From: Bacteroidales bacterium
GTDB taxonomy: Bacteria; Bacteroidota; Bacteroidia; Bacteroidales; FEN-979
Length of the DNA stretch: 64,000 bases
Assembly: GCA_023231065.1 (NCBI GenBank)
Contig: JALNWE010000004.1
Coordinates: forward strand, 5,167-69,166
Reading direction: 5' to 3'
The notes below the pieces were generated by a model, which was given only the letters and a program-made list of their open reading frames with translations, made no database searches and was not told where the DNA came from. Within the stretch, counting starts at the first letter, position 1, and each line of letters opens with the position of its first letter. A program made the position numbers and the translations under genes. This document shows, piece after piece, positions 14,348-40,271 of the stretch.

Positions 14348-17300
14348 TTACAACCTTACTTCAATAAAATTATGTGGTTTGGTCAGCATGGACATAAACT
14401 GATCCTTTGAAATAACCGCCCCACCCTGGCGATAACTGTTCCCTTCATCCCCGAAAGTCACAGGAATGCCATTGATGGTAATGGATTTTGGGCCAAAACT
14501 GTCTTCTTTGACCGTATATAAAAAGGTTACCGGATGACCCATGAAATCCAGGGAGGCCGACAGGCCATCCAGGGATCGCGGAATTACCGGATCTATAATC
14601 ACCTTACCGGATTCAGTCCGTAAACCCAGCAGCCTTGAAACGACAAGTCCAATGTAAATACCTGGTCCGCTGGAATAAACCCTCCATCCTCCTTTCAGGG
14701 TGATTTTTCCTGTTTTTATCTCATCGTAAAGTTCATCGGCTTCATACCGGTTTTTAAAAGTAACATCCGAGCTACTGTAATAACAATTGGATTGGCGGAT
14801 ATCACCACAGGGGACGATTTCCCTGTAGCCAACCGGATTTGCCTGGCGAAGGGCTTTCAGAAAAGCCTCTGCCCTACCTGTGCGGGCCAGCGCTTCTGCA
14901 TACCGGATATGCTCATGAACATACATGAGGCCAATCTCACGGCCAAAGAAAGTACTGCTCTCCGCTCTCTGAAAGAGGGCCTGGATGCCTCCCTTATAGG
15001 GAAGGGGCCGGTCCATCAGCCGGGCCCCGTCAGGGCCTTTCAGGTGCATTTCAATGAGATCCTGGTGGCGTAGCGCTTGTTCCTTTGTGAATATCCCACT
15101 GATCACGCCCCGGTCCATCGGCAGGATGCTGTACCGGATGCTAGTCATAGTATCACCCGGATGAAGCAATAAACTGATGCTGCGATCTTCTTCAACCAAA
15201 CCATATCCTGCAACCACGCCATCCTTGATCAGATATCGGTTGAAATCCGATTTGATTTGTTTTGATATTTCTTTTAATTCATTGGATTTTGATTCATCAC
15301 CTGTCAGCTCATAGACGGCCTGGTACTGGTTAAAGGCCTGGTAATTCATTTCAACCGTCCAGCTTGAGATCATCCGTTGCGCCAATTCCTTGTTAACCGG
15401 TTGCAGGGAATCATTCCAGTCACCGCCCCCAAAGGGGACCAGCGCCGTGCCGGGAATAAAGGAGCCAACGATCATCCTGATCAGCCGGTCAATATGCTCG
15501 CTGAGGGGTGTATGTTCCGCATAAGCAATCCCTTTTTCATGATAATAAGGTAAAATCCCGTCGAGGATATTCAGGTCACCGGTCACTTTGATATAATTAC
15601 TCAGGGCAATGATGCACCAGTAATAAACATCCCCGTGTGAACTGTAGGCCCGGATATTGGAATAACTGTCGAACATCCACCATTGCGGCCAGCCGCCATC
15701 CTGATTTTGATTTGAGAAAATGATACGCAGCGCCTGCCGGGCCGCATCATATTTTTCCAAACACAGCAACAGGTCAAACGGTCCCTGGGCGATATCCCTT
15801 GTCCCCCAGGCTGCGCCACTGAATTGCTCCAGGCCATAAGGCGTCAGAAAATGGGTAAGGGCATTCATGCCATACCATGGCAGGATCTCCTGAATGGCAG
15901 CGATATCTTCCTGATCCCCCTTTAATGATAGGTTTAAACACAAGTCCTGCCACGAAGATTGGGCGTCATGGCAATCAGAAAACCACTGGTCGCCGGTCCT
16001 GTTGATACACTTATCCGGGCTGTATTCCCTGCATACCTCACCCACGAAACTCATGAAGAAACCCGTTGTTTCGCGGACATCGATCACAAATAAGGAATTT
16101 CCATGGTTTTTTTCATCATCGAACAGTACTTCGGCCCTGCTATTTTGATTATCAAATCCATCAGCAAAGATTTTAAATTGTGCGTTTGGAAATTTTCCGG
16201 CAATCATACTTTCCGGCCCTGGCCTGGCGATGAACTCACCAGCGCTGTTTCCCTGTATAATCTTCCAGCCGTTCAGTGGATCAAAGTGATGGGTGATCAA
16301 AAGACTGACCTTTGGCCCACGAAAAACTTTGAAGTCCATATTGACCCTTGGCGCTGTTTTAGAGGTCCAGGCGCGGACCTGAAAACAATGGTCCCCGGAT
16401 TTATAAATCCACCGGCAGTGATTCAGCCCGATCTCAAAAGCTGACGGAACGCCCAACAAAAATCTCCGGCCTTCGGTCTCAACAAAAATTCGTTGCCCGG
16501 TTTCGGGTTCGAGATTAAAAGAGCTGTTACAAATGGATAGAAAAACATTGAAATTGGTGTTCCCCTGTGAAAGATGCGAATTGAAAACCCCGAAGGCATA
16601 GGCCGTTGTCGCGACGGTGTTTTCATCGGGCACATATCCTGATTTTGCCTGCATGATATGGCCATGGGGACGGTCAGCCAAAACCTCTTTTGCGCGCAGC
16701 ATCACATGGTTATTATCCTGGCAAAAAAAGGATAGCAATTGCCCGTTTTCCGATTCATCGTGACGCCGTTTGCTACCGAAAAATTGTTCAAGCTCCTGTT
16801 CATTCAGGTCGTCAACCGGTAAAAAACAAGAGGTATTGAAGAAATTCCTCACCGGAGCCTGGAATTTTTGCGTATCCCGGAAGGCGCTCTTGTCAGATTG
16901 AGGTGACAATCCATCCCTGAATTCTGACATCAAGCCGGATAACCGTTTCAGATCATTTCCTGATGTTGCCTGGGAGTGATCCTGTAAATAGGTCGCTGTA
17001 AAAATACTTTGGCGATGTTCCCCGTGCAACAATGTAAATGGTGTTTCCTGCAAAGCAAGCACAGAAGATTCCCCTGCATATTCGCCTCCCAGCTTACTGT
17101 CAAGCAAACTTTCCGGGATCCCGGTTTCCCTGTATGTTTTACCATAAAACTGCATACCATCGACACTTCCGGCTATGGCGTTATTCCTGCATGCTAACAT
17201 TATCCAGGGATTACCAACCGGTCCTTTCATGTTCTGACGGCAGCATATAACAGAGCCATAATTGGGATCTTCCAGGATTCGCCGTTCAATATATTGACTT

Positions 17301-17710
17301 ACATAATATTCATTGATCAACCCATCCGTAATCGGTTTCAGACCGACATCCTGGACATAGATCAAGTCAAGGTCAACCTGGTCATCTGTCGGATTGGAAA
17401 CATCAACTGACCATTGCCAGCTCAGGCTTTTTTTTGAAAGCTGTAACGCACAGGTATAATGAAGACCAGCCCAACATCCTTTCGCCACGAAAATATTGCC
17501 GGTCACCATGAATTGGCTGTTACTTTCCGGTCCCAAAAGGGCCTTATGCCCCAAGGGTTCTGTTCTTCTTCGTAAATAAAGGTTCGCTCCTGATTTTGAA
17601 AAGGGTGTTGCTGCTTTAAGGCTTATCCTGATGGGACCGGCCTCAATGCTCTTTACGGAACCATTTTCCAGAAAATCAATGGAGAGGCCAAGGGGATTTT
17701 TAATTTTCAT
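14348..17710 (-). CDS. GH94 glycoside phosphorylase, 1,2-beta-oligoglucan phosphorylase (SOGP)-like
   Basis: 1120 aa, no signal peptide; THFLTPYGLEQFSGAAWGTRDIAQGP, WPQWWMFD, HGDVYYW, GGGDWNDSLQP (catalytic Asp region), YVHEHIRY, GWRVYSSGPG. Size and motifs fit recalled SOGPs (Lin1839, Cphy_0694) and the GH144 context. Confidence 0.8.
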   Translation of the reverse strand: MKIKNPLGLSIDFLENGSVKSIEAGPIRISLKAATPFSKSGANLYLRRRTEPLGHKALLGPESNSQFMVTGNIFVAKGCWAGLHYTCALQLSKKSLSWQWSVDVSNPTDDQVDLDLIYVQDVGLKPITDGLINEYYVSQYIERRILEDPNYGSVICCRQNMKGPVGNPWIMLACRNNAIAGSVDGMQFYGKTYRETGIPESLLDSKLGGEYAGESSVLALQETPFTLLHGEHRQSIFTATYLQDHSQATSGNDLKRLSGLMSEFRDGLSPQSDKSAFRDTQKFQAPVRNFFNTSCFLPVDDLNEQELEQFFGSKRRHDESENGQLLSFFCQDNNHVMLRAKEVLADRPHGHIMQAKSGYVPDENTVATTAYAFGVFNSHLSQGNTNFNVFLSICNSSFNLEPETGQRIFVETEGRRFLLGVPSAFEIGLNHCRWIYKSGDHCFQVRAWTSKTAPRVNMDFKVFRGPKVSLLITHHFDPLNGWKIIQGNSAGEFIARPGPESMIAGKFPNAQFKIFADGFDNQNSRAEVLFDDEKNHGNSLFVIDVRETTGFFMSFVGEVCREYSPDKCINRTGDQWFSDCHDAQSSWQDLCLNLSLKGDQEDIAAIQEILPWYGMNALTHFLTPYGLEQFSGAAWGTRDIAQGPFDLLLCLEKYDAARQALRIIFSNQNQDGGWPQWWMFDSYSNIRAYSSHGDVYYWCIIALSNYIKVTGDLNILDGILPYYHEKGIAYAEHTPLSEHIDRLIRMIVGSFIPGTALVPFGGGDWNDSLQPVNKELAQRMISSWTVEMNYQAFNQYQAVYELTGDESKSNELKEISKQIKSDFNRYLIKDGVVAGYGLVEEDRSISLLLHPGDTMTSIRYSILPMDRGVISGIFTKEQALRHQDLIEMHLKGPDGARLMDRPLPYKGGIQALFQRAESSTFFGREIGLMYVHEHIRYAEALARTGRAEAFLKALRQANPVGYREIVPCGDIRQSNCYYSSSDVTFKNRYEADELYDEIKTGKITLKGGWRVYSSGPGIYIGLVVSRLLGLRTESGKVIIDPVIPRSLDGLSASLDFMGHPVTFLYTVKEDSFGPKSITINGIPVTFGDEGNSYRQGGAVISKDQFMSMLTKPHNFIEVRL

Positions 17711-20141
17711 TTCCTGGTTTATATTTCAGGATCATTTTTTCCCTGTGTGCATGACTGTACAGGATTGCAACACGGTTGACGGAACGGGCCATTTTAACCG
17801 CAACACCGTTTATTGTTGCAGATCCGATCCTGTTCACATTTGCGCCTTCGAAGACGATCTCACCGGCGAGGTCGCGATCCCCATACAGGATGATTTCAAC
17901 CTGGCCCGCTTTACATTCCATGCCAAGAATATCCGAAGTAGTGTGCAGTATCTTCAATCCGGGACATACTTCCATACACAGGGGCGTTAATATGGCATAC
18001 AAGGCAGGCCATAACAGATCACCCTTTAAAAAGGGGATGGTGATGGTTTCGCCACTTTCGGGATGGGTGTACGACACGTTGCCTTTTTGCTCTTCGTTAT
18101 AATAATTTCCCACGAAAAGCAAACCCTCCTGGTTAACCGTGAAGCGTTCCCTTACGACGATAAAATCATTGTTGGACGATGCCTGCCTGAGTTTTGCCCC
18201 TGATCGCTTCAATATCGTCTCATAGACCGGTTTGTCAGCTTCGGTGTCGAATCCGATCCATGTCCCCAGATGGATCACGGTTCCGTTTCCAAGGGCTTTT
18301 AAGAATCCACAGGCTGTCCCGTTCAGCGTCCTGGCGATAATTTCTGCGCCGGAAAGGGAACCTTCAGGATAAATGATCAGGGGATTGGAACATTTGATGT
18401 CTTTCAGGTCAAATACATCGACCAAAGGCGAATCTATAATCTCTCTTCCGGAAGGCGCAATTGGCAAACTATCGCGAAGAATTGTGCAAGGTTTTTGAGA
18501 CATCTCCCGATCAGGCAGGTATGGAAAAACGACCAATTGACCGCCTGCCCTTGTATAATCCACGAGGGTTTGCTGATCCACCGCGTTCATTTCGTCTGTG
18601 CTGAATGCCCATACTTGTTTGTAGCGCAGCAGGGTTTCGGCAGATGCTTTGGTCAGATCAATCATATTATAATCTATATTCATGACCTGAAGGGCTTTCA
18701 GCAATCCATCGAAATATGCCGGCCGGCGAATGGCAGAGGGGGTGAACAGGAGTTCACATTCAGCGCCAACCGGTCTTTCAAGTTCTGTAGCGTAATAAGG
18801 AGGATAAAACAGCACACCTACTTCTGCTTTACGTTTCGCGTTGACGATAAGGCTTTCGGAGGTTCTGATGATGTTGCTCATCCGTTCTACCAAAGGGTAT
18901 AAACTGGTGTGCCTACCTTCGGCGGTGAGTGGGCTGAACCAGTAAAAAGTTTCTCCCGAATAGCCTTTATGTTTTGGGTTACGGCCCTGAGAGAACATAT
19001 AATAATTCCAGCCCGACAGGCCATTGGCGATGCTTGCTTTATAGAAAAGTTCCATTTCCCGTGGATTGGTCACGACATTATATTCACGGGAGCCGCTCTG
19101 GAACTCGGCTGCAAACATTGGTTTATTTCCCTGCATGGCATGGGTTACATCATTGATGATACGGTCGTCGTGCAAATTGCGGTATGAAAAGAATTCGGGG
19201 ATATGGTCCACACCAAAAATGATCCCGCTTTTATCCCCGAAAAGCTCATCGTACATCGTGATATTGACCGGGAATTCATACCCATTCCCATAGATCCATC
19301 CGGGGAGGTTGTGATATAAAGGAACGCCGACTCCCCTATCCCTGGCCATTTCGACCAGCATTTTCAGGTAATCCGCATAATACCTTCTCCAGAAACAGTG
19401 CCATTCGTAATCACGGCCCCGATCGCCTTTTGACGCGTAAGGAAGCTTCCCGTCCGGTGGAAGGCCTATCTGCCCAAAATCATGATATTCAGTTCCCCAT
19501 AATGTGTTTACCTGATCAACCGAAGAAAATTTATCGGAAAGGTATGAGAGGAAGCGATCCTTTACGGCATTCCCGAAGTCTGCCTGTTTGGCTAACCATG
19601 AAAAAACGCCTATTTCGTTACAGATCTGCATCATGATGATGGCCCCCCCTTTTGAGATCTCCCTTTCATGGATGAAAGGCATGATCTGATCGTACCAGAG
19701 CGTCACTTTTTCCAGGTAGTTCGTGTTGAACAGGCTCACTCCGTCGCTTTGGACGATTTCCCCTTTACGGTTACGCATCTTGACCTCATCCCGATATCGG
19801 GCCATGAACCAATCGGGCAATCCGGCCCCGCGGTACTCTGCCAGGATAAATGGTCCCGGTTTAACGATGCAATTCAAGCCATGGGCCTGACATCGCCGGA
19901 GCCATCCTTTCACGTCGCATTCCGGGCAAGAGGATCCGTCCAGGTCAAAGACAGACTCCTGTTGCTCGTGCCATGCCCATGGGATATAAGTACTGACGGT
20001 GGTCAACCCGGCATCTCTTGCAGCAGTCAGGTGCTTGTCCCACAGATCGCGTTTGATCCTGAAATAGTGGATCTCTCCTGAATTGAGAAATACCTTTTTT
20101 TCGTTCAGATAAAAACTGTCTTCTTTAATGCTAAATGTCAT
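17700..20141 (-). CDS. Cytoplasmic GH35-like (beta-galactosidase fold) enzyme with GH42-type trimerisation domain
   Basis: SGEIHYFR, TYIPWAWHE, KPGPFILAEYRGAGLPDW, QICNEIG (acid/base), AAEFQSG (nucleophile), YYMFSQG; no signal peptide. The stop overlaps the GH94 start by 11 bp. Confidence 0.8.
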   Translation of the reverse strand: MTFSIKEDSFYLNEKKVFLNSGEIHYFRIKRDLWDKHLTAARDAGLTTVSTYIPWAWHEQQESVFDLDGSSCPECDVKGWLRRCQAHGLNCIVKPGPFILAEYRGAGLPDWFMARYRDEVKMRNRKGEIVQSDGVSLFNTNYLEKVTLWYDQIMPFIHEREISKGGAIIMMQICNEIGVFSWLAKQADFGNAVKDRFLSYLSDKFSSVDQVNTLWGTEYHDFGQIGLPPDGKLPYASKGDRGRDYEWHCFWRRYYADYLKMLVEMARDRGVGVPLYHNLPGWIYGNGYEFPVNITMYDELFGDKSGIIFGVDHIPEFFSYRNLHDDRIINDVTHAMQGNKPMFAAEFQSGSREYNVVTNPREMELFYKASIANGLSGWNYYMFSQGRNPKHKGYSGETFYWFSPLTAEGRHTSLYPLVERMSNIIRTSESLIVNAKRKAEVGVLFYPPYYATELERPVGAECELLFTPSAIRRPAYFDGLLKALQVMNIDYNMIDLTKASAETLLRYKQVWAFSTDEMNAVDQQTLVDYTRAGGQLVVFPYLPDREMSQKPCTILRDSLPIAPSGREIIDSPLVDVFDLKDIKCSNPLIIYPEGSLSGAEIIARTLNGTACGFLKALGNGTVIHLGTWIGFDTEADKPVYETILKRSGAKLRQASSNNDFIVVRERFTVNQEGLLFVGNYYNEEQKGNVSYTHPESGETITIPFLKGDLLWPALYAILTPLCMEVCPGLKILHTTSDILGMECKAGQVEIILYGDRDLAGEIVFEGANVNRIGSATINGVAVKMARSVNRVAILYSHAHREKMILKYKPGNEN

Positions 20142-22299: not shown

Positions 22300-25200
22300 T
22301 CAATAGTAAATTATTATTTCGGCGGGACAGGTGTTGACTGATATTTCCTTTTCTGTGAAATCCTTTCTCTCTTCCCCGTTAACGGTTACTTTTGAAGGCA
22401 GTTTTGACCCGTTGAAATTTTTTATTTTAATGCCGTTAGCAGGAAGTTGCAGGTTTCCGGAAATCGAAAAGAGATATTTTTCCTGGTCTTTTTTTATGGC
22501 ATAGGAGATCTCTCCGTAATAGGTTGGCAAATTTCCAACGGACATTCCGGTGGGTGAATCAATCCAATCCTGGTACAGCGCTGAAGCAATAACAAGCGAT
22601 TGATCCTGTTCATTTTCATAAACGAACAGGGCCCTGATCGCATTGATAAAATCGCTGCCAACCCAGGTATGGGGCATATCTCCGATATAACGCGGAGTGC
22701 GGTAATCCTTCCAGACAACTTCGGCCCAATGGTTCCACCCCTGCGGGCGCTGATCATGCAGGAAAAAATCAATCAGTTCATGGGCCCTTTCCGGTTGATC
22801 CAGCATGATAAATGAACCAATCAGCCGGTTTTCGTAAGGTGTATAATTCACCCAGTCAATTTTCCCGTCCCTCCTGTTTTTGAAAAAGTCATAATATTTG
22901 TCAAAAGTATTGTAAACCTGTGGTTTTGGTAAATTATTCAATTCATTACAGGGTGTTAAGGCGACCGTTGTGGAGGTGGCATCGAAATCACCCAGTTCAA
23001 CACAACCGGGTATGTAATCAATATCCCTGTTTTTCATGGCGAGTTGAAGGGAAGCATATAGGTTTTCCCTGAAGGTATCCCTGACTTTTTTAATCCTCTC
23101 ATACGCTTCCTGTTCGCCTAAAATTTCCTGGATCTCAGCCGCGTCTTTCAAACCCTTCATGGTGAAAAAATCATCCCAGTACGAGTGCATGGGTTTTGCC
23201 GAATACCCTTCATGACTGATGGATTCAGTGACCAATCCATAATAGGCGCGCATGCTGTCGTTCCCGTTTTTAAAACGGTCAGACGATCTTTGGGCGATCA
23301 GCGATTCGATGTATTCAACTGCTTTGAGGACATTTTTATTTTTTGACCGGAGAAAAGCAGTGTCCTTGGTGAAGTTGAAATATTCCTTTACCAGGTAGAT
23401 CATTTCCCCGTGGCTGTCGTTCTCGGGAACCGGGTCAGGGCCCCTGAAATCGACCACGCAGGGAACTTTCCCGTTTTCAAACTGGTGATCGGTAAACCAG
23501 TCAATAAATTCCTTTACTTCTTTGACGATCCCGGATTTCAACAAGGCAGACGAAGTTAACGCCCCGTCGCGGATCCAGCTCCGTTCATAAGACCGGGAAC
23601 CGGGTTGTATGCCGGATTTATCCCTGTTGACCAGGATGTAAACGAGATTGGATTTATAGGTATCGACTATTTTGTTTGCAGATTCTGGTAAATTAAACCG
23701 GATATGCCCGACTTTCTGTCTCCAGAACTCCGTCGATTTATTGCATTGCTCCTGAATAAAATTATAACTAAGATTGCCATTCTTGTCGTCTTTACCATAA
23801 AACGGGACTACTACAAAGAATTCAGTTTGTTCACCCGGGTTTAAGTGTAACGAATATTTAATTATTCCGTTTGCTAACCCGCTTTGATCAACAACGGATT
23901 TATTCTGAGGGAGACATCCTTTACGGAGCAAATCAACAATATTGCCTTCCTCAAACATGCTTGCTCCGAATGCATCATATTTTTTTTGAGAAAGGATGAC
24001 TTTATCATCATCGACCAGGATCCTGCCATCCCCTTCCCTGATTGAATTTATCTTCCCTGCGCCACCAGTCAGGTTTAGAAACTGGTAGTATGGATTCACC
24101 TGAAAGGGACGGACCAGCAAATAAAATTCAAAATCTTTTGGTTCGCCTGAAAGATTGTTAAATGAATAACGGATATTAAGGACCGAATTTTTATTAGCCT
24201 CACCGGAAGCTATAATTCCGGTTGTGAATTTCAGATCCTTGCAACGCCAGGCAACAGAAGGTATAAAAGTAAATTCCTTTGGATTTTTTGAATCCATCAA
24301 TTGAGAGGACCTGACATTGCTCCAGTTATACAGTGAATCCTTGATTTTTATCATTGGTTCGATCGAAAACCGCGCTTTATCCACTTCCACCATCCCATCT
24401 TCATTGATCAGCGCTTCCCTAACATCATTGTTAACACCGGTTATCGTCCAATAGGAAGCCTGTCCCAGGAAATATCTTGGATAATTTCCTACCGGGGAAT
24501 TTTTAGCCGCGTAAATCAGGAAATCATTCTGTGTTAAGGAATTTTCAATATCCGGAAATTTCACTTCACAAATGCCAAACCCCTTACCGGAGCTGCTTTT
24601 AATAAAGTTCAGCTTGACGAATTCCGCTTCGGCTTCGGGGAGCCTGATAAAACTGACCTCATTCCCGTTGGATTGAATGGAGCAGGGTTTTTCCCATTTT
24701 TTACCGTCTTCTGATATAAGAACATCAAAATCTTTTGCGGCATGGTCTTTCAGCCAGCCGATCTGTACGCCGCCAAATTCCCTTTTGGCCTTAAAGTCAA
24801 TAATAATTTCCTGATTGTCAGTACCATCGCTTTGCCAGGATGTTCCATCTAAACCATCCATGATAAAGTCAGGCGAATGGCCCTTGATATAGGAGGATGC
24901 TTTAACAGATGGCGATGGATAGGATTTTGTTTCAGGAGGAAGTTTTTCAAATTTCAGGTCATCAATCCAGATCGTTCCTTTGCCCCCAACAAAGGAGGCA
25001 ATGGTAAATTCGATCCGGTCAACTCTTTTGAAGCTTTGATCAGTTGTTGGTCCCCATGCAAAGTGGATATGTCTTTTTTTAATCCGGATCTTTTTCCATT
25101 CGCGGGGGAAGTCATAATTGCGGTTATTGACCCACCAGACATTGTTCCCGGCGCTGTCAATGAATTTTATTTCAAAATTGTTCGCGGGGGAATCAGCCTT

Positions 25201-26805
25201 CAAGTAAAAGGTGAATTCATAATTATCCGGAAGATCGATGGGGAAAAGCTTCTGTATCCCTCCGTAACCGATTCCTTTTGTGAAATCATAATCGAGCCGG
25301 ATAGCATTGCCGTATAATCCTTTTTCATTGGTAAGTTTCAGGTTAACCCCGTCGGACTGGATGAAGGCCCAGCCATTTTTGTTCCCGAATTCATCCAGGG
25401 TCATAATCTGAGTGTGGGGCGCCGGGGAATATTCAAATCCGAGTTTGTTCAAACCATTCTGAATGACCGGATCCTTCATGACATAATTCCAAACAAGCCC
25501 TGTCCTGAAATTTTCCACCATGATTAGCAAAGGGCCCTGATCGATACCGATAAAATCGTCGTTGAACCACTTGGCTGTCGGATTGAAAGCGTCATAATAA
25601 CCATATTTGCCCCATAGTCTATTGCCATATTTTTTATTGATCGACTGTACCGTAGGCAACACGATTTCAGGAGCGAAGGGCAAAGATGCGAGCGAAGCGT
25701 AAGGAGCAATGGTCCCATCATCGAAATAGTTGAAATCAGGTCCGCTTGTTCCCCTGCCGGCATAGCCCAAAAATTTCTTATCTCCGAAATTATATTTATC
25801 CGTGGGCCCGTCACTTGCCGTAACGCCCCAGCAAAGCGAATCATAACCAACCCATCCCTTCGGGTTATCCATGGCATATTGCCGTTGGACATAAGTTGCG
25901 CGGCGTGAGTTTTCGAAGTAATCGATTCCCTTTTCCTTCATATATGCATCAGCGATTCCGCGAAAATCGATGAACGCCTGTGAAAACTGATGACCGAATA
26001 AAGGGGGAAAAGCCACGTGCGACAAACCTTTATAAGGGGTGTACCATTGATATGACTGTAACCATGACTGGTAGCTTTTTTCAATATTTTTCATCCCGCT
26101 CCCGGCAGCCAAAACATAAAGCAGTAAAGCTTCATTATAACCGCTCCATCCATAATCGTGCAACCCTTTTTCGGGAGTCCATCCCATGGAAATGGTAGAA
26201 GCGAATTTTCCCGAATCAGGCATTTCCATGAAGTCCCAGTCGATCCTACCCAGTAATTTTGCTGCCAGCGAACGGATCTGGTTTTCAACTTCATTGTCCT
26301 TGTTGTAATAATTCCTTGCAAAAATGATCCCCATCATGAGTATCCCCGTGTCGATGGATGACAGTTCGCAATTCCATTCCCTTGTCCCGGAATTCATCCG
26401 GAGGAAATGATAATAAAATCCCTTGTATCCTGTCGCGTTGTTATCAGCGCTTTGGACCGACTGGTCAAAGAATGTCAGAATCCTGAGCGTGATCGTTGCC
26501 GCCTGTTCACGGGTTATCCATTTCCTTTCAGCCCCGATGGCAAAGGATGGGATTCCAAAACCTGTGGATGCGATGCTGGCAGGAGCCCAGGTCGCAGTCC
26601 GGTCTTTTACAATTCCCCACACCGGATGATGTTCCTTTAAAAAGAAAAGAAAAGTCTTATGTTGAATAGAGTCGAGCATGGATTCCTCATCGTGGGTCAA
26701 TTTATAATCGACTTTTCCCTGGGATTTGAACACAATTTGCTGGCACCGGGCAGCGGTCAGGGTAAAAATAAAAGCCACAAACAATAAAATCTTACCGACC
26801 TTCAT
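22300..26805 (-). CDS. Multimodular protein: GH144-like endo-beta-1,2-glucanase + CIA30/CBM11-like + F5/8 (CBM32-like) + unassigned (alpha/alpha)6 hydrolase
   Basis: Signal peptide. N-terminal module: ASIASTGFG, KGFYYHF, ELSSIDTG, GYNEA, LFGHQFSQ, WGVTASDGP, GYYDAFNP, IDQGP. Middle: LDYDF...GYGG, DDLKF, then MDGLDGTSWQS...IDF. C-terminal: QPGSRSYERSWIRDG, ENDSHG, SISHEGY, HSYWDD, WAEVVW, GDMPHTW. Confidence 0.78.
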   Translation of the reverse strand: MKVGKILLFVAFIFTLTAARCQQIVFKSQGKVDYKLTHDEESMLDSIQHKTFLFFLKEHHPVWGIVKDRTATWAPASIASTGFGIPSFAIGAERKWITREQAATITLRILTFFDQSVQSADNNATGYKGFYYHFLRMNSGTREWNCELSSIDTGILMMGIIFARNYYNKDNEVENQIRSLAAKLLGRIDWDFMEMPDSGKFASTISMGWTPEKGLHDYGWSGYNEALLLYVLAAGSGMKNIEKSYQSWLQSYQWYTPYKGLSHVAFPPLFGHQFSQAFIDFRGIADAYMKEKGIDYFENSRRATYVQRQYAMDNPKGWVGYDSLCWGVTASDGPTDKYNFGDKKFLGYAGRGTSGPDFNYFDDGTIAPYASLASLPFAPEIVLPTVQSINKKYGNRLWGKYGYYDAFNPTAKWFNDDFIGIDQGPLLIMVENFRTGLVWNYVMKDPVIQNGLNKLGFEYSPAPHTQIMTLDEFGNKNGWAFIQSDGVNLKLTNEKGLYGNAIRLDYDFTKGIGYGGIQKLFPIDLPDNYEFTFYLKADSPANNFEIKFIDSAGNNVWWVNNRNYDFPREWKKIRIKKRHIHFAWGPTTDQSFKRVDRIEFTIASFVGGKGTIWIDDLKFEKLPPETKSYPSPSVKASSYIKGHSPDFIMDGLDGTSWQSDGTDNQEIIIDFKAKREFGGVQIGWLKDHAAKDFDVLISEDGKKWEKPCSIQSNGNEVSFIRLPEAEAEFVKLNFIKSSSGKGFGICEVKFPDIENSLTQNDFLIYAAKNSPVGNYPRYFLGQASYWTITGVNNDVREALINEDGMVEVDKARFSIEPMIKIKDSLYNWSNVRSSQLMDSKNPKEFTFIPSVAWRCKDLKFTTGIIASGEANKNSVLNIRYSFNNLSGEPKDFEFYLLVRPFQVNPYYQFLNLTGGAGKINSIREGDGRILVDDDKVILSQKKYDAFGASMFEEGNIVDLLRKGCLPQNKSVVDQSGLANGIIKYSLHLNPGEQTEFFVVVPFYGKDDKNGNLSYNFIQEQCNKSTEFWRQKVGHIRFNLPESANKIVDTYKSNLVYILVNRDKSGIQPGSRSYERSWIRDGALTSSALLKSGIVKEVKEFIDWFTDHQFENGKVPCVVDFRGPDPVPENDSHGEMIYLVKEYFNFTKDTAFLRSKNKNVLKAVEYIESLIAQRSSDRFKNGNDSMRAYYGLVTESISHEGYSAKPMHSYWDDFFTMKGLKDAAEIQEILGEQEAYERIKKVRDTFRENLYASLQLAMKNRDIDYIPGCVELGDFDATSTTVALTPCNELNNLPKPQVYNTFDKYYDFFKNRRDGKIDWVNYTPYENRLIGSFIMLDQPERAHELIDFFLHDQRPQGWNHWAEVVWKDYRTPRYIGDMPHTWVGSDFINAIRALFVYENEQDQSLVIASALYQDWIDSPTGMSVGNLPTYYGEISYAIKKDQEKYLFSISGNLQLPANGIKIKNFNGSKLPSKVTVNGEERKDFTEKEISVNTCPAEIIIYY

Positions 26806-26864: not shown

Positions 26865-29108
26865 TCAGTTCAGGAAAATAGATGTTGAGATTGTTTCCTT
26901 TGAATTGGAGCCTATTTGGATGATAAATTCACCAGGTTCCCAGTATTTTTTCAGATCGGGATGATAAAAGGCAAGATCATCCCTGGTCAGGATAAAGGTT
27001 ATTGTCCTTGTTTTTCCTTTAGGGACCAGTATTTTTTGGAACCCTTTAAGCTCTTTAACCGGGCGGGTAATGGCGCCAATTTTGTCATGGACATATAGCT
27101 GGACCACTTCTTCCCCATCGCGGTCACCGGTGTTGGTAACATGGGCCCTGATATTGACAGTGTCCCCTGAAAGGGTAGCTTCCAGACCAGAATATGTGAA
27201 TGAGGTATAGCTTAACCCATATCCGAATGGGTAAAGAGGATCATTGTCAACATCAAGGTAACGGGAAACGTATTTTTCATCCGGTTTTTCAGGGTTAAAC
27301 GGTCTCCCTGTATTTTTTGAATTATAAAACAACGGGATCTGTCCGACATTTTTAGGGAAAGTCATGGTCAGTTTGCCCGATGGGTTGATATCACCGAAAA
27401 GGATGTCGGCGATTCCATTTCCTGCCTGGGTCCCCCCAAACCATGATTCGAGGATGGCAGGCGCAATTTCGTTCAGCCTGGTCAAAGTCAGCGGGCGTCC
27501 GTTGAACAACACCACCACGATCGGTTTCCCCGTATTGATGATCATTTCAGCCAGTTCTTCCTGTACGCCGGGAAGGTTGAGACCGGAGCGGCTGGCGGCT
27601 TCTCCGCTCATTTCGCGATCCTCTCCCAGCGCGAGTATCACGTAATCTGCATGGTTTGCCACATCCAGGGCTTTTTCGAACCCGCTTTTGTCGGCATCGT
27701 TCACATTACATCCTTTTTCAAAGACGACCGGTATCTTTCCGTTGACCTTGTTTCTAATTCCTTCCAGAAGGGTAATGCACTTTTCCCATTCTCCCGCCGC
27801 TGACCAGCCACCCAGCATGTCTCCCTTTGAATCGGCCAGCGGGCCAATCACGGCGATGCTTCCAACCCCTGCGGGAATGGGAAGCGTTTGTTTGTCATTC
27901 TTCAGCAGGACACAACTTTCGGTAACCATTTTCCGGGCCAAGGCCAGCTTTTCCGGGGTCATGATCTCTGTTTCCTGGCGCGTTTTATTGCAATAACGAT
28001 AGGGATCTTCAAAAAGTCCTAACAGCGCTTTGGCTTCTAATACTGACCGTACGGCTTCATCGATCCTCGCCTGAGAGACTTTTTTTTCGTTCAATAATTC
28101 TCCAAGGTAATTCAAAAACGTACTACCCTCCATGTCCATATCCACGCCGGCATTTATCGCCAACCGGGCAGCATCCTTATTGTCTTCCGCAACGCCATGA
28201 TTGACCATTTCATTGATGGCGGTCCAGTCAGTCACAATAAATCCCTTAAAACCCCATTCTTTTCTCAGGAGATCAGTCAGGAGCCAGGCATTGCAGGTGG
28301 AAGGGATCCCGGCTATTTCATTGAAAGAGGTCATAAGAGACCCGGCGCCGGCATCAACAGCCGCTTTGTAAGGAGGAAGATACCATTCATACAGGGAGAC
28401 TGGCGACATATCCACGGGGTTATAATCGCGACCAGCCATAGCGGCCCCGTAGGCGGCAAAATGCTTAACACAAGCCATGAGGGTGTTTTCTGATTTCAGG
28501 TCATTGCCCTGGAATCCCCTGACCCTGGCTGCCGCGATCTTACCCCCTAACCATGCGTCTTCACCGGCGGCTTCCATCACCCTTCCCCACCGGGGATCAC
28601 GCGCTATATCGACCATCGGCGCAAAAGTCCAGTTGATCCCTGCCGCGGTAGCTTCAATGGCCGCAACCCGTTCGGCTTCTTCAATCAGCTTTAAATTCCA
28701 GGTGCAAGCCTGGCCTAAAGGGATCGGAAAGATCGTACGGAACCCATGGATCACATCATAACCAAAAAGCAAAGGGATCTTCATCCGGGACCCTTCCACT
28801 GCCAGCTTTTGTACTTCCCGGACATAATCAACCGAGAAGGCATTTAAAACGGCTCCTGCATTACCCTCTTTGATCAGTTTTTTGTAATCATTATTCATCG
28901 ATGGCCCCGTGTTGTCCCATCCTGATGCAAACAGCGAAAGCTGACCGATCTTTTCTTCGATGGTCATCTGCCTCATTAAAGTTTCGATTTTTATCTGATC
29001 GGCAGGAGAAATATTTTGTCTGGTATTTTTCTGTGCTTCAACTGAATGACATAAAATCAGTATGGCAACCAGCAGGAAAAGGATTTTCGGTTTGGAACTT
29101 TTCATCAA
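26865..29108 (-). CDS. bglX: Periplasmic GH3 beta-glucosidase (BglX-like)
   Basis: GYDVIHG, APMVDIARDPRWGRVMEAAGED, KHFAAYG, IVTDW (nucleophile), GEAASR, GKLTMTFP, LYPFGYGLSYT, ELKGF. Confidence 0.93.
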   Translation of the reverse strand: MMKSSKPKILFLLVAILILCHSVEAQKNTRQNISPADQIKIETLMRQMTIEEKIGQLSLFASGWDNTGPSMNNDYKKLIKEGNAGAVLNAFSVDYVREVQKLAVEGSRMKIPLLFGYDVIHGFRTIFPIPLGQACTWNLKLIEEAERVAAIEATAAGINWTFAPMVDIARDPRWGRVMEAAGEDAWLGGKIAAARVRGFQGNDLKSENTLMACVKHFAAYGAAMAGRDYNPVDMSPVSLYEWYLPPYKAAVDAGAGSLMTSFNEIAGIPSTCNAWLLTDLLRKEWGFKGFIVTDWTAINEMVNHGVAEDNKDAARLAINAGVDMDMEGSTFLNYLGELLNEKKVSQARIDEAVRSVLEAKALLGLFEDPYRYCNKTRQETEIMTPEKLALARKMVTESCVLLKNDKQTLPIPAGVGSIAVIGPLADSKGDMLGGWSAAGEWEKCITLLEGIRNKVNGKIPVVFEKGCNVNDADKSGFEKALDVANHADYVILALGEDREMSGEAASRSGLNLPGVQEELAEMIINTGKPIVVVLFNGRPLTLTRLNEIAPAILESWFGGTQAGNGIADILFGDINPSGKLTMTFPKNVGQIPLFYNSKNTGRPFNPEKPDEKYVSRYLDVDNDPLYPFGYGLSYTSFTYSGLEATLSGDTVNIRAHVTNTGDRDGEEVVQLYVHDKIGAITRPVKELKGFQKILVPKGKTRTITFILTRDDLAFYHPDLKKYWEPGEFIIQIGSNSKETISTSIFLN

Positions 29109-29138: not shown

Positions 29139-31121
29139 TCAATGAGTGAACCCAAGTTTTGTAAGGCCGGCCTGGACTTCGGGCGACGACATGAAGAGGT
29201 TCCATAAAAGGGCGGTCCGGTAATTTTCGATCATACAAACGATCGGTCCCTCATCGATGGCAAGATAGGAATCGGCCCACCATCCTTCAGTTACATCATA
29301 AGCATCATAAAAGCCATAATTTCCCCACAGACGATCCCCCAACTGGTAATAGAAAAACCGGATCGTGTTCATGGATTGTGTTGGGACATACGGCAAAGCG
29401 GATATGGCGGCAGTGGGTGTTATGACCCCAAGGTCGTTGGCAGGTGACTGGGCATCGTAGCCCCAGGGGTTGTCACTGGCTGTAAGCCCCCATGAAAGTT
29501 TGCTATAATCCATGTAGCCATTGGGATTTGTAAAACAGTGAGTCCAGTTGATCAACGATTGGTTCACATTCTGTTCCCAGTAATTGGCATATTGATCCTG
29601 GAGATTTCGCGGATCAAGACCGAGAAACGAGTAATGGGTAAAGAAAAGCGGACCGCCATAAGGGTCCCCCAGTGGGAGACGATATCCATAATAGCTGTTG
29701 CCATTTTTAATAGCCCCGCTTTTTGCATATCCCTGGTGATAAACCACGGCCGGTATTGGATGAGTGGTCGAGGTGGCAGCAACGATATAGGTGATCAAAG
29801 TTTCGTTGTAACCCTGGATGGGCATGTTCATATGCCATTGGTAATTGGGGGACCAATGCCAGTAGAGGACATTCTGGCCATTCTGCCTGAACCAGTCGTA
29901 TTCAACGGCATCGGTCAGCGTGGTAATCCGCTGGATCAGGGTTTGCTCCGCGGGTATCGCGGCATCCAGGTATTGCTTCATCGCGATCAGCCCTTCGATC
30001 ATATAGGAAGTTTCAACCAGATCTGCCCCGTCATCATAAGTGGTGAAAGGATGGACCCTTCCCGTACTCCCGTTCAGCCAATGGGGCCAGGCGCCATGAT
30101 ACCGGTCGCAGGTTTCCAGAAAGGTCAATATTTTATTCATCCGGGTCAGTCCCTGGTCGCGCGTTATGAATCCCCGTTCCATACCTACAATTAAAGCCAT
30201 GACCCCAAAACCGGAACCACCGATGGTAACGACATCGCCGGAGGTATTTCGTTCTCTCGCCAGTCCACAGTTCGGATGGGCAAAATCGTAAAAGTATCGG
30301 AATGTCTGTTCCTGTACCAGGGTAAGGAGCTGATCATCCGGAATGATGGGAAATTTGGGCGTTGAATCCAGCGCGGTATAGAACGCGTTGTAAAAGCCAT
30401 CGAAAGGGAACCCGTTTTGGGAGGTTAAATTCTTAGAAATATTCAAAAAGCACCTGGAATAGTCCGTCAATTGTTTTGAATTTGTGATAAGGAGTTTTTT
30501 ATTTTCATTGGTGAGAGAAAAGATAAGCGGCATCCCTGACGACATAGTAAAAAAAGAGCTAAGGGTTGAAGGGTCCAAAGGGTCCGAAAAGGTAATTTCA
30601 ACTTTCACAGAATCCTTTTTCCCATTGATATTTTTCGGGACCATGGGCACCTGGAAAGGTTGTTTGTTTATGGTGATGGTTTCGATAGTGAGTTTACCGG
30701 CAATTGTGGTGAAAAGTAACTCTACTCCCGTGAATGTTTCGCCGTTGATTCCTTTTAATCCTGATGTGACCTGCAATCGATAGTTTGCGGAATGATCCAG
30801 CGGTTGTTGAAAAACAAGCCGGACCGCTGTATTGTTTTGAAACAGCGTAAGGTCACAGGGTATTTCTGTATTATTGGTTTTTGTGAGTAAAATGCTGCCA
30901 TTTGCAGAAGAAGGGTCAAGGGTGTTATTAAAATATATATAAATAGAGCTGTCAACCGGGACATCTTTGGCCGTCTCCCCGATTTTAAGAATTACAGGCC
31001 CGGCTTTTACCTGTGCTAACTGGATTGAACCGGTCGGTGTATCTGAACTTTTCTTTTTACACCCGGTACAGAAAAAAATGGCAACTACCAGGAATGCTGC
31101 AATAATCGGATAAACTCTCAT
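29139..31121 (-). CDS. GH144 endo-beta-1,2-glucanase lipoprotein with two N-terminal Ig-like (Big_5) domains
   Basis: Lipobox CTGC-KKKSSD; GLARERN, TIGGSGFGVMALIVGMERGFITR, HGAWPHW, GADLVETSY, GYNETLITY, GPLFFTHYSFLGLDPR, WGLTASD, YLAIDEGP (CpSGL/Cpin_6279 type). Confidence 0.9.
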   Translation of the reverse strand: MRVYPIIAAFLVVAIFFCTGCKKKSSDTPTGSIQLAQVKAGPVILKIGETAKDVPVDSSIYIYFNNTLDPSSANGSILLTKTNNTEIPCDLTLFQNNTAVRLVFQQPLDHSANYRLQVTSGLKGINGETFTGVELLFTTIAGKLTIETITINKQPFQVPMVPKNINGKKDSVKVEITFSDPLDPSTLSSFFTMSSGMPLIFSLTNENKKLLITNSKQLTDYSRCFLNISKNLTSQNGFPFDGFYNAFYTALDSTPKFPIIPDDQLLTLVQEQTFRYFYDFAHPNCGLARERNTSGDVVTIGGSGFGVMALIVGMERGFITRDQGLTRMNKILTFLETCDRYHGAWPHWLNGSTGRVHPFTTYDDGADLVETSYMIEGLIAMKQYLDAAIPAEQTLIQRITTLTDAVEYDWFRQNGQNVLYWHWSPNYQWHMNMPIQGYNETLITYIVAATSTTHPIPAVVYHQGYAKSGAIKNGNSYYGYRLPLGDPYGGPLFFTHYSFLGLDPRNLQDQYANYWEQNVNQSLINWTHCFTNPNGYMDYSKLSWGLTASDNPWGYDAQSPANDLGVITPTAAISALPYVPTQSMNTIRFFYYQLGDRLWGNYGFYDAYDVTEGWWADSYLAIDEGPIVCMIENYRTALLWNLFMSSPEVQAGLTKLGFTH

Positions 31122-31223: not shown

Positions 31224-32504
31224 TTAAGGTTTTTCTGATTGATACATCAGGTCGATTTCAGTTGCAGTAAGGACCCGGTGGAAAATCCTTACATCATCCA
31301 ACTGACCGCCAAAATGGTTGGAAGTCGGGATGGTATAACCGCCCCACGGTTGGTTGGCCCACAGGGTACCTTGTCTTGATTTGATAAATCCGAAAGCCAG
31401 TCTCGGGTAAACATCAGGCGCAGTGCCTGTCCATTTCAGTCCGGCTGCAGCATTCAATGGTGGATCAGCGAGGGTAAAATCCTCTTCTTTCATCAATTCC
31501 CCATTAAAATACATCTGTGCTTTTTTAGTGGATCCGTTGAACACAAATGTTATTGAGATCCATTTATCCTTGATAACGGAAACCATTCCTTCAGCAGGCG
31601 TCGGAGTGAGGGCTTTACAGTATGTACAGGCTTTCCATCCTCCATTATCCATTGTTAATCCGTCTCCATTGAAAACAAGGTCATGGGGGTTTGTCGCGGG
31701 GTCGCCAACATTGTAGGTCGCGCCAAGTTTACATTCGGCATAGGTTCCCTGAAGTTCAAACTGAAAACCATAATAAGCGCCGAGACCGATGACAAAATGC
31801 CCTTTGGGGTTACCGTCGGCATCAACATGTCCGACTGAGTTTGTCTTCATCCAGAAGTTCAAAGTCATATCAGCAGTGTTTGACAGCTGATCGCCATTTG
31901 GAATTTCTATAATGCTGGTAGTGCCGTCGAAAGTTGCAGCAGTCCCTGCCGAAGCTTTATAGGATGGCGTATAGGTGATGGCAATGACACTATCGGCGTT
32001 AAAAGTACCGACCTGGTCGTTGGCATTGCCTTCGAAATTCCAGTACGCGATCTGACCAACCGGGACAAAGGTCCCTATGGTAGTGAAGGTCCTGAAGAAA
32101 CCTGAGATCGACTGGCCATCAGTGGAGGATATCGACGGGAAGGTGAGTTTAAACAAAGCTCCGTTCCCCAGTTCTTCATCGGGTATGATGGTGATCTTGT
32201 TTCCGGCTAATGTAACGGTCAGAGGTATGCTTTTCTGATCATAATCCCTTACAAGTGTGATGGAGTTGGTTGTCAGGCTTGCAGCATTTACATCCATCGT
32301 GAAAGTCGCTACAATGACAGGGTCTGATGGAACATTATTCGCCGAGGTGGCGCCGTTCAGATTGATACTTCCTCCCTCTAACTGAGCAACCAGCGAAGAG
32401 AGAGAGAACGGGTCTGAATCACTTTTCTTTTTGCAACTTGACAATCCTACCAGGAACGCAAGTGCAATACACAATGTACTTACTAGAACAATTTGTTTTT
32501 TCAT
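31224..32504 (-). CDS. Surface lipoprotein, Big_5 + LamG-like jelly roll (SusE-positioned glycan-binding protein)
   Basis: Lipobox LSSC-KKKSD; IAYWNFEGNAND, TLNFWMK, MYFNGEL, FGGQLDDVRIFHRVLTATEI; directly downstream of susD. Confidence 0.8.
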   Translation of the reverse strand: MKKQIVLVSTLCIALAFLVGLSSCKKKSDSDPFSLSSLVAQLEGGSINLNGATSANNVPSDPVIVATFTMDVNAASLTTNSITLVRDYDQKSIPLTVTLAGNKITIIPDEELGNGALFKLTFPSISSTDGQSISGFFRTFTTIGTFVPVGQIAYWNFEGNANDQVGTFNADSVIAITYTPSYKASAGTAATFDGTTSIIEIPNGDQLSNTADMTLNFWMKTNSVGHVDADGNPKGHFVIGLGAYYGFQFELQGTYAECKLGATYNVGDPATNPHDLVFNGDGLTMDNGGWKACTYCKALTPTPAEGMVSVIKDKWISITFVFNGSTKKAQMYFNGELMKEEDFTLADPPLNAAAGLKWTGTAPDVYPRLAFGFIKSRQGTLWANQPWGGYTIPTSNHFGGQLDDVRIFHRVLTATEIDLMYQSEKP

Positions 32505-32568: not shown

Positions 32569-34062
32569 TTACCAGTTCGGGTTTTGTGTTAAAGATCCCT
32601 GTGAAATATCAATTTCACTTTGTGGTATCGGTAGAAGTTCATGTTTCCCGGCAACAAACCCAAGCGGGCCTAACACCTGTGCCGCCCTGCCAGTCCTGAT
32701 CAAATCCCAGAAACGCCATCCTTCCATGGCCAGTTCATGACGTCTTTCATTAAAAATAATATCGCGTAATTCATCTTTGTTGAGTGTGGTAATATCCGGA
32801 AGGATAGCGTTATTTCCCTGCCGTGCCCTTTGCCTGACCTGGTTGAGATAGAGTAAGGCTTCGCCAGGTTTATCATTTTCATTCAAAGCTTCAGCAGCCA
32901 TCAACAAAACATCGGCGTACCTGATCAACCGGCGATGATGTCCATACTGGGTGATGACGTTATCGCCGGGGACCCAGACTTTCCGGGTATAACATTCAAT
33001 TTCAATAATATTGCCATGTTCATCGTAGGTAATGTCAGGGGTAGGTCCGTCGCCAAGGATTTTTATACCATCGATGGTGTCGCCCAGGTTGATAACCGTA
33101 CCTTTATATCTTGGGTCACCGGTTTCGAAAGAATTCCTCAGGTCGATGGTCGGACGGTTAAATCCCCAGCCGCGATTGGGGGTCCCCCGCACTCCCTGGG
33201 TGTTGGCATATTGGTTGCCCCCGCCTGTTGTGATTTCCGACTGGAGAGCCCCTACTTCAAAAACAGATTCAACGCCGTTGTTCCCATTAACGCCATTGGC
33301 ATCAATGAAGAGAGGCTCCAACCCGTATTGATTTGAAGTAATCACATCCATGGCATACTTTTCGGCATCGGGGAAATCATTTCTGAAAAGATAAACCCTT
33401 GCCAGTAATGCCTGGGCGGCCCCTTTGGTTGCCCTGCCGATCTCGGTGTTTTTGTATTCTGATTTAAGGGGTAAATTGTCGATGGCGAAATTCAGGTCAC
33501 TGATGATAAGGGTATATACATCTTCGGCAGAAGACCGTTGGAGTTTTAAAGGAGGATCGGTGGTCGTGACCAGCGGGACCCCGCCCCAGGCCCTTACAAA
33601 ATCGAAATAGATCAATCCACGGATGAATTTAGCTTCGGCGATATACCGGGTTTTCAATTCTTCATCCATCGCGATGGCAGGGATTTTTTCAATCACCACG
33701 TTTGCCCTTTTCACGCCTACATACAATGCATTCCAGTAACGGTCGATGCCATCCTGGGTAGTCGTATGGGTAAACACATCATAGGGGCCCACGGTGGAAG
33801 CCGCGTCGTCAGGGTTACTTCCTTTTCGGGCATCATCCGACATGATATCAAAAATGGGAAAGCCTCCCGCGCTGTAATACCATTCCCTGACGGCTTCATA
33901 CGTGGCATTTGTCGCTAACAAAGCATCCGACGGAGAGGTGGGGAATAATTGCTGGGTCAGCGTGCCCTGAAGGTCTTTCTCCAGAAATTTTTTGCATCCG
34001 CTGAAAAATATGCTGGTTGTGACGACCAGGATCGAAAAATATAATTTGGCTTGTGTTCTCAT
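32569..34062 (-). CDS. susD: SusD/RagB-family glycan-binding lipoprotein
   Basis: Lipobox FSGC; YIAEAKFIRGLIYFDFVRAWGGVPL, GRATKGAAQALLARVYL, IRYADVLLMAAEA, ERRHELAMEGWRFWDLIR, LPIPQSEI. Confidence 0.95.
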   Translation of the reverse strand: MRTQAKLYFSILVVTTSIFFSGCKKFLEKDLQGTLTQQLFPTSPSDALLATNATYEAVREWYYSAGGFPIFDIMSDDARKGSNPDDAASTVGPYDVFTHTTTQDGIDRYWNALYVGVKRANVVIEKIPAIAMDEELKTRYIAEAKFIRGLIYFDFVRAWGGVPLVTTTDPPLKLQRSSAEDVYTLIISDLNFAIDNLPLKSEYKNTEIGRATKGAAQALLARVYLFRNDFPDAEKYAMDVITSNQYGLEPLFIDANGVNGNNGVESVFEVGALQSEITTGGGNQYANTQGVRGTPNRGWGFNRPTIDLRNSFETGDPRYKGTVINLGDTIDGIKILGDGPTPDITYDEHGNIIEIECYTRKVWVPGDNVITQYGHHRRLIRYADVLLMAAEALNENDKPGEALLYLNQVRQRARQGNNAILPDITTLNKDELRDIIFNERRHELAMEGWRFWDLIRTGRAAQVLGPLGFVAGKHELLPIPQSEIDISQGSLTQNPNW

Positions 34063-40202: not shown

Positions 40203-40232
40203 ATCAATGGGATTCACAATCCGTTCTCTGGC

Positions 40233-40271
40233 CAAATGTACACAAAATAAACCAAGTAAACTGTATCTTTG
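40233..40271. promoter_or_regulatory. Back-to-back -7 elements: TACATTTG (-, 40240-40233) and TATCTTTG (+, 40264-40271)
   Basis: Two exact TAnnTTTG matches pointing at ATG 40202 (-) and ATG 40298 (+). Confidence 0.6.

Follow-up and report, generated by a model that had tools for sequence, protein, structure and literature searches.

A rare natural gene fusion joins an XcSGL-type GH144 domain to a predicted GH15-like module in a Bacteroidales β-1,2-glucan utilization locus

Background

What is the function of a large module that is fused to a β-1,2-glucanase domain, and is such a fusion real? These questions are raised by a 1501-amino acid (aa) open reading frame (ORF) at positions 22300..26805 (minus strand) of a 64,000-nucleotide (nt) stretch of DNA from a Bacteroidales bacterium (GTDB lineage FEN-979; assembly GCA_023231065.1, contig JALNWE010000004.1, positions 5,167 to 69,166 of the forward strand), referred to here as the window. 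The original prediction, made from the letters and the translated ORFs, described a continuous fusion of a glycoside hydrolase (GH) family 144 domain, two β-sandwich binding modules and an unassigned (α/α)6 catalytic module.

β-1,2-Glucans, such as cyclic glucans and osmoregulated periplasmic glucans (OPGs), play roles in symbiosis, pathogenesis and osmoadaptation, and the enzymes responsible for their catabolism have been mapped only since 2014. GH144 enzymes cut linear and cyclic β-1,2-glucans, and GH3 enzymes trim the non-reducing end. In Xanthomonas and many other Proteobacteria, α-1,6-cyclized β-1,2-glucans occur as osmoregulated cyclic glucans with a link to virulence. Synthases of these α-1,6-cyclized glucans (degree of polymerization 12–29) are widespread in Proteobacteria, and the combined action of CpSGL and BtBGL on such glucans yields glucose and a ‘non-degradable glucopentaose’ (10.1101/2025.04.21.649730, a 2026 preprint of the Nakajima group).

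This work demonstrates that the ORF is a genuine, rare natural gene fusion, the two-gene form of which is very common. Based on profile alignment, we conclude that the 741-aa C-terminal module (C-module) is a remote GH15 homolog outside the family boundaries of Pfam and NCBIfam. Most probably it hydrolyzes glycosides with inversion, its −1 subsite being of the GH15 type, and it is a candidate for a new GH family within the GH15 clan (GH-L type). The functional tie of the C-module family to β-1,2-glucan catabolism is strongly supported, and the family is among the most consistent cross-phylum partners of GH144. Set against this very common, uncharacterized two-gene module, the rare fusion is of secondary interest.

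Reality and origin of the fusion

As originally described, the frame is unbroken, with zero internal stop codons over its 1501 aa. It encodes, in order, a signal peptide, an XcSGL-type GH144, a module resembling carbohydrate-binding module (CBM) family 11, a CBM32 and the C-module, which itself consists of a β-sandwich, an (α/α)6 barrel and a β-domain (coordinates in Table 1). A split relative was found in a Tenuifilaceae metagenome-assembled genome (MAG; L001, JBGGIO010000002.1), in the same locus and with the same gene order. Two separate genes are found there, one for a GH144 of 460 aa and one for a ‘discoidin domain-containing protein’ (P0092) of 1061 aa, the second starting 14 bp past the GH144 stop and carrying its own signal peptide. 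This free-standing protein is 76% identical to the C-module of the window, and the closest free-standing homologs reach 83% identity. The statement in the original prediction that discoidin-containing proteins occur as separate genes beside GH144s is thus borne out, both in L001 and in other loci.

In the fusion, nine residues (SPAPHTQIM) stand where L001 has a stop codon, a 14-bp spacer and the entire second signal peptide. Because about 70 nt including a whole signal peptide are gone, the junction is not the result of a single-base slip. Two groundwater metagenomes that belong to another study contain Logan contigs crossing positions 25402–25428 with zero or one difference, and in a landfill metagenome the entire stretch lies on one 35.7-kb contig. 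Equivalent fusions occur in five other lineages, namely four further protein clusters (P0122–P0125, 1481–1516 aa, with 9–34 member sequences each) and another species of the genus (G013), whose protein is essentially identical to P0122. An assembly or sequencing artefact that masks two separate genes was considered, as the split arrangement is the norm and the window was taken from a 169-contig MAG. It was rejected on the junction-spanning contigs, the missing nucleotides and the equivalent fusions, and we regard its probability as practically negligible. The concern that a sequencing error hides a stop codon at the junction is removed by the same contigs and by the absence of a whole signal peptide.

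The linkers of the fused clusters are all unlike one another in sequence and length. A maximum-likelihood tree built on the C-module needs four changes to account for the fused forms, which are monophyletic in 0 of 200 bootstrap trees; the strongly supported branches, taken alone, are compatible with a single origin. The fusion likely arose more than once, as far as the tree and the linkers indicate. It is present in 2 of the 19 family-bearing genomes of the genus and in none of 80 species representatives of other lineages. In the course of events that we propose, two genes that usually lie tightly packed side by side would have been joined by a deletion that took out the stop codon, the few intervening bases and the signal peptide of the second gene. 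The first gene encodes a periplasmic XcSGL-type GH144 and the second an exported protein of ~1061 aa with a CBM11-like module, a CBM32 and the 741-aa catalytic module.

The C-terminal module

Searched against the PDB, the sequence of the C-module gave chance matches only (XPA, E ~1), and the profile of its family gave marginal ones (MmpH, E 0.0096; GH94, E 0.01; GH15-related entries, E ~1). No Pfam or NCBIfam model covers the module: Pfam matches nothing past aa 750, and PF00723 is absent at E ≤ 0.1. A weak, partial NCBIfam match of aa 960–1197 to TIGR01577, a GH15-type ‘oligosaccharide amylase’, scored 32 bits, where the cut-off of the model is 820.

An AlphaFold2 model of aa 761–1501, built from a 69-sequence alignment, reached a pLDDT of 95.8 and a pTM of 0.95. 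Its helices at aa 1014–1394 place the barrel at 22624–23766, in agreement with the second barrel that had been predicted at about 23660–22650. A Foldseek search of PDB entries up to April 2026 gave matches at the fold level only, with TM scores of 0.5–0.6 and 9–13% identity. The best were GH94 phosphorylases (E 2e-19, TM ~0.6), with GH15 just behind (E 3e-16), represented by dextran dextrinase (9ju0), glucodextranase (1ug9) and glucoamylase (1lf6, TM 0.62); GH116 and GH78 enzymes were also among the matches.

With hhalign, the family profile aligned to a GH15 alignment built from genomes of the same phylum along the entire barrel (373 columns), at a probability of 96.6% (E 6.7e-10). The alignment pairs YERSWIRDG with YRFTWLRDA of GH15 (the WxRD motif, R1079/D1080), ENDSHGE with QWDIYGE, SHE (E1199) with IWE, which holds the general acid of GH15, WAE (E1362) with FSE(E), which holds the general base, and GDMPHTWVGSDFINA with GNFPQAFSHIGYINA, a GNFPQAFSH-type motif. 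The alignment to the GH94 1,2-β-oligoglucan phosphorylase (SOGP) was weaker and partial (89%, E 2e-6), with the catalytic GDWND opposite non-conserved residues.

Conservation was assessed in the 69-sequence alignment, the members of which are 34–58% identical to the query. It contains 29 invariant columns, clustered on the catalytic loops of the barrel and including both catalytic Glu residues. Among them are R1079/D1080 (SWIRDG), E1128/D1130 (ENDSHGE), H1198/E1199 (SHEGY), H1207/W1210/D1211 (HSYWDD), E1362 (WAE) and D1376/H1379 (GDMPH), so that all six acidic motifs listed as conserved-looking in the original prediction fall on invariant columns. The motif residues are also kept in distant paralogs of ~800 aa, which are 22–27% identical.

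These paralogs (L009 1420-3828 (-), L010 879-3278 (+) and L113/L116) lack CBMs and have no Pfam match. They neighbor GT4, metallophosphoesterase and HAD genes, a setting that looks like glycoside or compatible-solute turnover rather than a polysaccharide utilization locus (PUL), and GH5 and GH115 were also seen. Their neighborhoods, being unrelated contexts, gave no clue to specificity.

The C-module shares with the GH15 enzymes 1lf6, 1ug9, 9ju0 and isomaltose glucohydrolase 5z3a (clan GH-L) an N-terminal β-sandwich followed by an (α/α)6 barrel. By alignment, not superposition, the two have in common Y-x-x-x-W-x-R-D, the acid Glu, the base Glu and the GNFPQAFSH-type motif. Identity is ~18%, and WEE of GH15 corresponds to SHEG in the family. 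The C-module protein differs further in its C-terminal β-domain, its N-terminal CBM11-like module and CBM32, and its genomic context, which is one of β-1,2-glucan and not of starch, dextran or trehalose. GH94 (cellobiose and chitobiose phosphorylases, SOGP) is the closest in overall fold and has the same four-part architecture, and SOGP shares the β-1,2-glucan context; the β-sandwich before the barrel is common to the C-module, bacterial GH15 and GH94. In contrast, the catalytic Asp motif of GH94 is not kept in the family, and GH94 enzymes are cytoplasmic whereas the C-module protein is exported.

Neither sequence nor fold searches of the PDB, nor Pfam, NCBIfam or the searchable literature, revealed a characterized member of the family. 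The β-1,2-glucan papers that could be searched, to May 2026, name GH144, GH162, GH186, GH189, GH192–194, GH94, GH3, GH1 and GH35 as associated families and do not mention this one. The earlier label ‘unassigned’ therefore holds for characterized relatives but is too broad, as hhalign identifies a remote GH15 homolog in which both Glu residues align.

Association with GH144

In a sample of 401 genomes drawn evenly from the phylum, GH144 was present in 133 and the C-module family in 34. All 33 family-bearing genomes besides that of the window encode a GH144; in 29 of them the two genes share a contig and lie no more than ~11 kb apart, and in 16 the GH144 is directly upstream of the family gene. 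Loci with complete 10-kb flanks numbered 47 and came from many phyla; GH144 was present in 42 of them, GH94 in 25, GH35 in 18, MFS in 17 and GH3 in 15. In 34–35 of 80 loci the GH144 ends on the same strand within a few bases of the open frame of the family gene. All 34 of the adjoining upstream GH144s are of the XcSGL type, being 45–83% identical to the fused GH144 and 26–30% identical to the CpSGL-type copy of the window.

The family occurs in about a quarter of the GH144-bearing genomes, which marks it as an accessory to GH144 systems and not a universal part of them. Three genomes (G192, G256 and G448) encode an XcSGL-type GH144 that is 54–58% identical to the fused one, but a search at E ≤ 1e-10 detected no GH15-like partner in them, so this GH144 subclade can occur unpaired. 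The fusion had been put forward as Rosetta-stone evidence for a β-1,2-glucan-related activity. The link to β-1,2-glucan is supported, but much more strongly by synteny conserved across phyla (42 of 47 loci, 33 of 33 genomes) than by the fusion, which adds modest evidence to it.

Proposed function and alternatives

The homology to GH15 biases the expected chemistry toward inverting hydrolysis of α-glucosides; to our knowledge, GH15-type machinery (clan GH-L) acts on α-linked substrates only. A protein that is exported, carries glucan-binding modules, is tied to one GH144 subclade and is the sole α-glucosidase candidate among the scanned genes of the locus is a natural candidate for an α-1,6 step. 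Under the mechanism that we propose, the C-module would be an inverting hydrolase that grips a non-reducing-end glucose via O4/O6, using E1199, E1362 and WxRD, and would cut the single α-1,6 glucosidic bond of the α-1,6-cyclized β-1,2-glucans made by many Proteobacteria. Its target could be either the ring itself or the limit glucopentaose left by GH144 and GH3. The products would pass to GH3, to the MFS importer and to the cytoplasmic GH35 and GH94, and the fused form would hold the endo-glucanase and its accessory enzyme in 1:1 proximity on a single exported polypeptide. Of the substrates suggested originally, α-1,6-closed cyclic glucans are favored by the GH15 homology; opening of an all-β ring is less so, as GH144 already does that.

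We hold this assignment tentatively. That the C-module hydrolyzes the α-1,6 bond of α-1,6-cyclized β-1,2-glucans, or of the glucopentaose that resists GH144 and GH3, is possible rather than probable, and we infer the substrate. The broader idea that the family is the missing α-1,6 hydrolase and founds a new GH-L family that co-evolves with, and is sometimes fused to, XcSGL-type GH144s is likewise one that we would advance with caution. For the account as a whole, which combines a genuine fusion, a GH15-like accessory hydrolase and the α-1,6 role, we put the chance somewhat below even.

Several points weigh against this account. The specific substrate is a prediction, and the top Foldseek matches are GH94 β-glucoside phosphorylases, slightly better than GH15, so that the fold by itself does not decide the anomeric specificity. 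The residues beside the acid are altered relative to GH15 (SHEG in place of WEE), which implies a different +1 subsite. For a protein of 1061 aa that carries two CBMs, a single α-1,6 bond per 12–29 glucose units seems little to gain. Lastly, the family adjoins GH2/GH43 in at least one genome, and 5 of the 47 loci have no GH144 within 10 kb.

The GH94 resemblance makes it conceivable that the module is an inverting exo-β-1,2-glucan hydrolase, a periplasmic hydrolytic counterpart of SOGP that frees glucose or sophorose from β-1,2-glucooligosaccharides (Sop_n) or from GH144 products. The succession of sandwich, barrel and C-terminal β-domain is GH94/GH65-like, hhalign does detect SOGP at the level given above, and association with an endo-β-1,2-glucanase would suit a classical endo/exo pair. 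Yet GDWND has no conserved counterpart while both GH15 Glu residues align, the periplasmic GH3 β-glucosidase of the locus already fills this role, and three quarters of the GH144-bearing genomes do without the family. We therefore consider such an enzyme unlikely. The accessory distribution of the family, together with two CBMs, which hint at a polymeric or decorated ligand, would also fit a debranching or decoration-tolerant glycosidase, an option raised in the original prediction as well, acting on β-1,6-glucosyl side chains of OPGs of the Escherichia coli type or on succinyl- or phosphoglycerol-substituted glucose that blocks GH144 and GH3. It is set back by the known restriction of GH15-type machinery to α-linked substrates and by the module itself, which shows no signature of an esterase or phosphodiesterase. 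Moreover, BtBGL is reported to remove the side chains of cyclic α-1,6-closed glucans completely (10.1101/2025.04.21.649730), and we rate this possibility somewhat lower still.

The presence of dextran dextrinase 9ju0 among the best fold matches, and the recurrence of transglycosylases in β-1,2-glucan metabolism (GH35 SGT, GH189, GH186 OpgD), bring up an enzyme that mainly transfers glycosyl units, remodeling or disproportionating β-1,2-glucan fragments rather than hydrolyzing them, by analogy with the GH15 dextran dextrinase. This is improbable given the invariant general base E1362, which points to hydrolysis, and the catabolic PUL setting with import downstream. More improbable again is a non-catalytic glycan binder or scaffold of enzyme ancestry. 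Two CBMs are present and the enzymatic activity of the module is a prediction, but the 29 invariant columns on the catalytic loops, both Glu residues among them, persist among members at 34–58% identity, and the catalytic residues are kept even in the 22–27% identical paralogs.

Characterizing the C-module family would probably establish a new GH family. If the α-1,6 reading is true, it would also close the gap left by the glucopentaose from α-1,6-cyclized glucans that resists GH144 and GH3, and provide a tool to break down or analyze virulence-linked cyclic glucans. The natural fusion would be a ready single polypeptide in which to study synergy of both activities.

The GH144 domain and the binding modules

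Pfam matches PF10091 (GH144) to aa 218–445 (E 3e-74; 250 bits, cut-off 27), and the PDB entry of XcSGL (XCC2207 of Xanthomonas campestris, 8xul) matches aa 44–458 at E 9e-107, compared with only ~1e-43 for CpSGL (5gzh). Together they put the domain at ~25429–26718, close to the 26700–25435 estimated originally. The residues E225 (26131–26133, the acid), F270 and Y348 are equivalent to E239, F286 and Y367 of XcSGL; such Glu/Phe/Tyr residues were used to define the SGL clan by Nakajima et al. (PMC12102758). The acidic region E147/D152 is also conserved by alignment, and the 8xul chain has a Q at the acid position, which fits a crystallized mutant. The fused GH144 is predicted to be an active endo-β-1,2-glucanase. 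XcSGL ends in a disordered C-terminal tail, whereas the fused GH144 is joined to the CBMs and the GH15-like module.

AlphaFold2 modeled aa 465–760 as two β-sandwiches (pLDDT 96), and the two binding modules of the original prediction were recovered by Pfam, profile and Foldseek searches. The first resembles CtCBM11 (1v0a; Foldseek E 5.5e-9, TM 0.70, root-mean-square deviation (rmsd) 3.2 Å, 20% identity; family profile against the PDB E 3e-4). The second is a CBM32, matched by PF00754 at aa 634–746 (E 3e-15; 57 bits, cut-off 28) and by 4zz5 (family profile E 5e-15; Foldseek TM 0.83, rmsd 1.5 Å).

The utilization locus

The fusion is part of a one-strand β-1,2-glucan utilization locus (Table 1). 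A SusC/SusD pair 4 bp apart stands with CAZymes on a single strand, which is the definition of a PUL in Bacteroidota. The gene order is Y_Y_Y regulator, SusC, SusD, a protein resembling surface glycan-binding proteins (SGBP-like), CpSGL-type GH144, GH3, fusion, MFS_2, GH35, GH94 and SSF. Pfam detected no other α-glucosidase family among the locus genes scanned. A canonical lipobox is absent from the N-terminus of the fusion and present in the second GH144 (GH144_b), SusD and the SGBP-like protein; this second GH144 is a probable surface endo-β-1,2-glucanase, judging from its N-terminus and PDB matches. The regulator has no histidine-kinase or receiver domains at E ≤ 0.001 and might be something other than a classical hybrid two-component system.

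Table 1. Features of the fusion ORF and of the surrounding locus, with positions in the window.
Feature	Position	Strand	Details and basis
Signal peptide	26740..26805	-	aa 1–22, MKVGKILLFVAFIFTLTAARCQ; signal peptidase I (SPI)-like; sole export signal in the fusion
GH144 endo-β-1,2-glucanase domain, XcSGL (XCC2207) type	25429..26718	-	PF10091 and 8xul matches
Fusion linker SPAPHTQIM	25402..25428	-	aa 460–468; alignment with split relative L001
CBM11-like β-sandwich	24931..25401	-	aa ~469–625; profile, AlphaFold2, Foldseek against 1v0a
CBM32 / F5/8 type C (discoidin)	24556..24918	-	aa ~630–750; PF00754, 4zz5
N-terminal β-sandwich of GH15-like module	23791..24525	-	aa 761–1005; AlphaFold2 model m68f08a1aeee6, strands at model residues 26–241
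(α/α)6 barrel of GH15-like family	22624..23766	-	aa 1014–1394; AlphaFold2 helices, hhalign, invariant columns
Predicted general acid E1199	23209-23211	-	alignment to GH15
Predicted general base E1362	22720-22722	-	alignment to GH15
C-terminal β-domain	22303..22623	-	aa 1395–1501; AlphaFold2 strands at model residues 635–740
Stop codon of fusion ORF	22300-22302	-	ORF reading
Regulator, 959 aa, upstream of SusC	37356-40235	-	Reg_prop and Y_Y_Y matches
SusC	34067-37123	-	Pfam
SusD	32569-34062	-	Pfam; lipobox
SGBP-like lipoprotein	31224-32504	-	Pfam; lipobox
Second GH144, CpSGL type, 660 aa, Big_5 domain, lipoprotein	29139..31121	-	5gzh E 1e-151 against 8xul 3e-36; lipobox FFCTGC/KKK
GH3 β-glucosidase, signal peptide, periplasmic	26865..29108	-	Pfam; N-terminus reading
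MFS_2 importer, 694 aa	20160-22244	-	Pfam
GH35, no signal peptide	17700-20141	-	Pfam
GH94 SOGP-type phosphorylase, no signal peptide	14348-17710	-	Pfam
SSF symporter	12542-14272	-	Pfam

The GH35 stop and the GH94 start overlap by 11 bp (17700–17710). By analogy with IaSGT and SOGP, GH35 and GH94 are suggested to form a translationally coupled cytoplasmic pair. The Pfam match of the MFS_2 importer stops near aa 441 and leaves an extra C-terminal region of ~250 aa, which is also found in the 697-aa ortholog of L001.

Distribution of the family

The C-module family is very large: clustering at 90% identity divides it into more than 7800 groups, for the most part of ~1061 aa, and at 50% identity (E ≤ 1e-3) there are 2316. 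It is present in at least 581 species genomes of at least eight phyla, with Bacteroidota, Ignavibacteriota, Calditrichota, Planctomycetota, Verrucomicrobiota, Gemmatimonadota, Kryptoniota and Proteobacteria represented. A member in a Verrucomicrobiota MAG (L026, JBEKOG010000011.1) is 69% identical to that of the window, is nested in the Bacteroidales clade and has an XcSGL-type GH144 4 nt upstream, which reflects either lateral transfer of the gene pair or a mis-binned contig. A different fusion was found in L011 (1992-7643 (+); G380, contig C101), where a CBM-like module, an F5/8 domain and the GH15-like module are fused C-terminally to a GH2 (PF00703/PF02836) in a protein of 1883 aa, flanked by GH43+F5/8 and GH3. 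The cluster P0175 (1868 aa) probably shares this GH2-fusion architecture.

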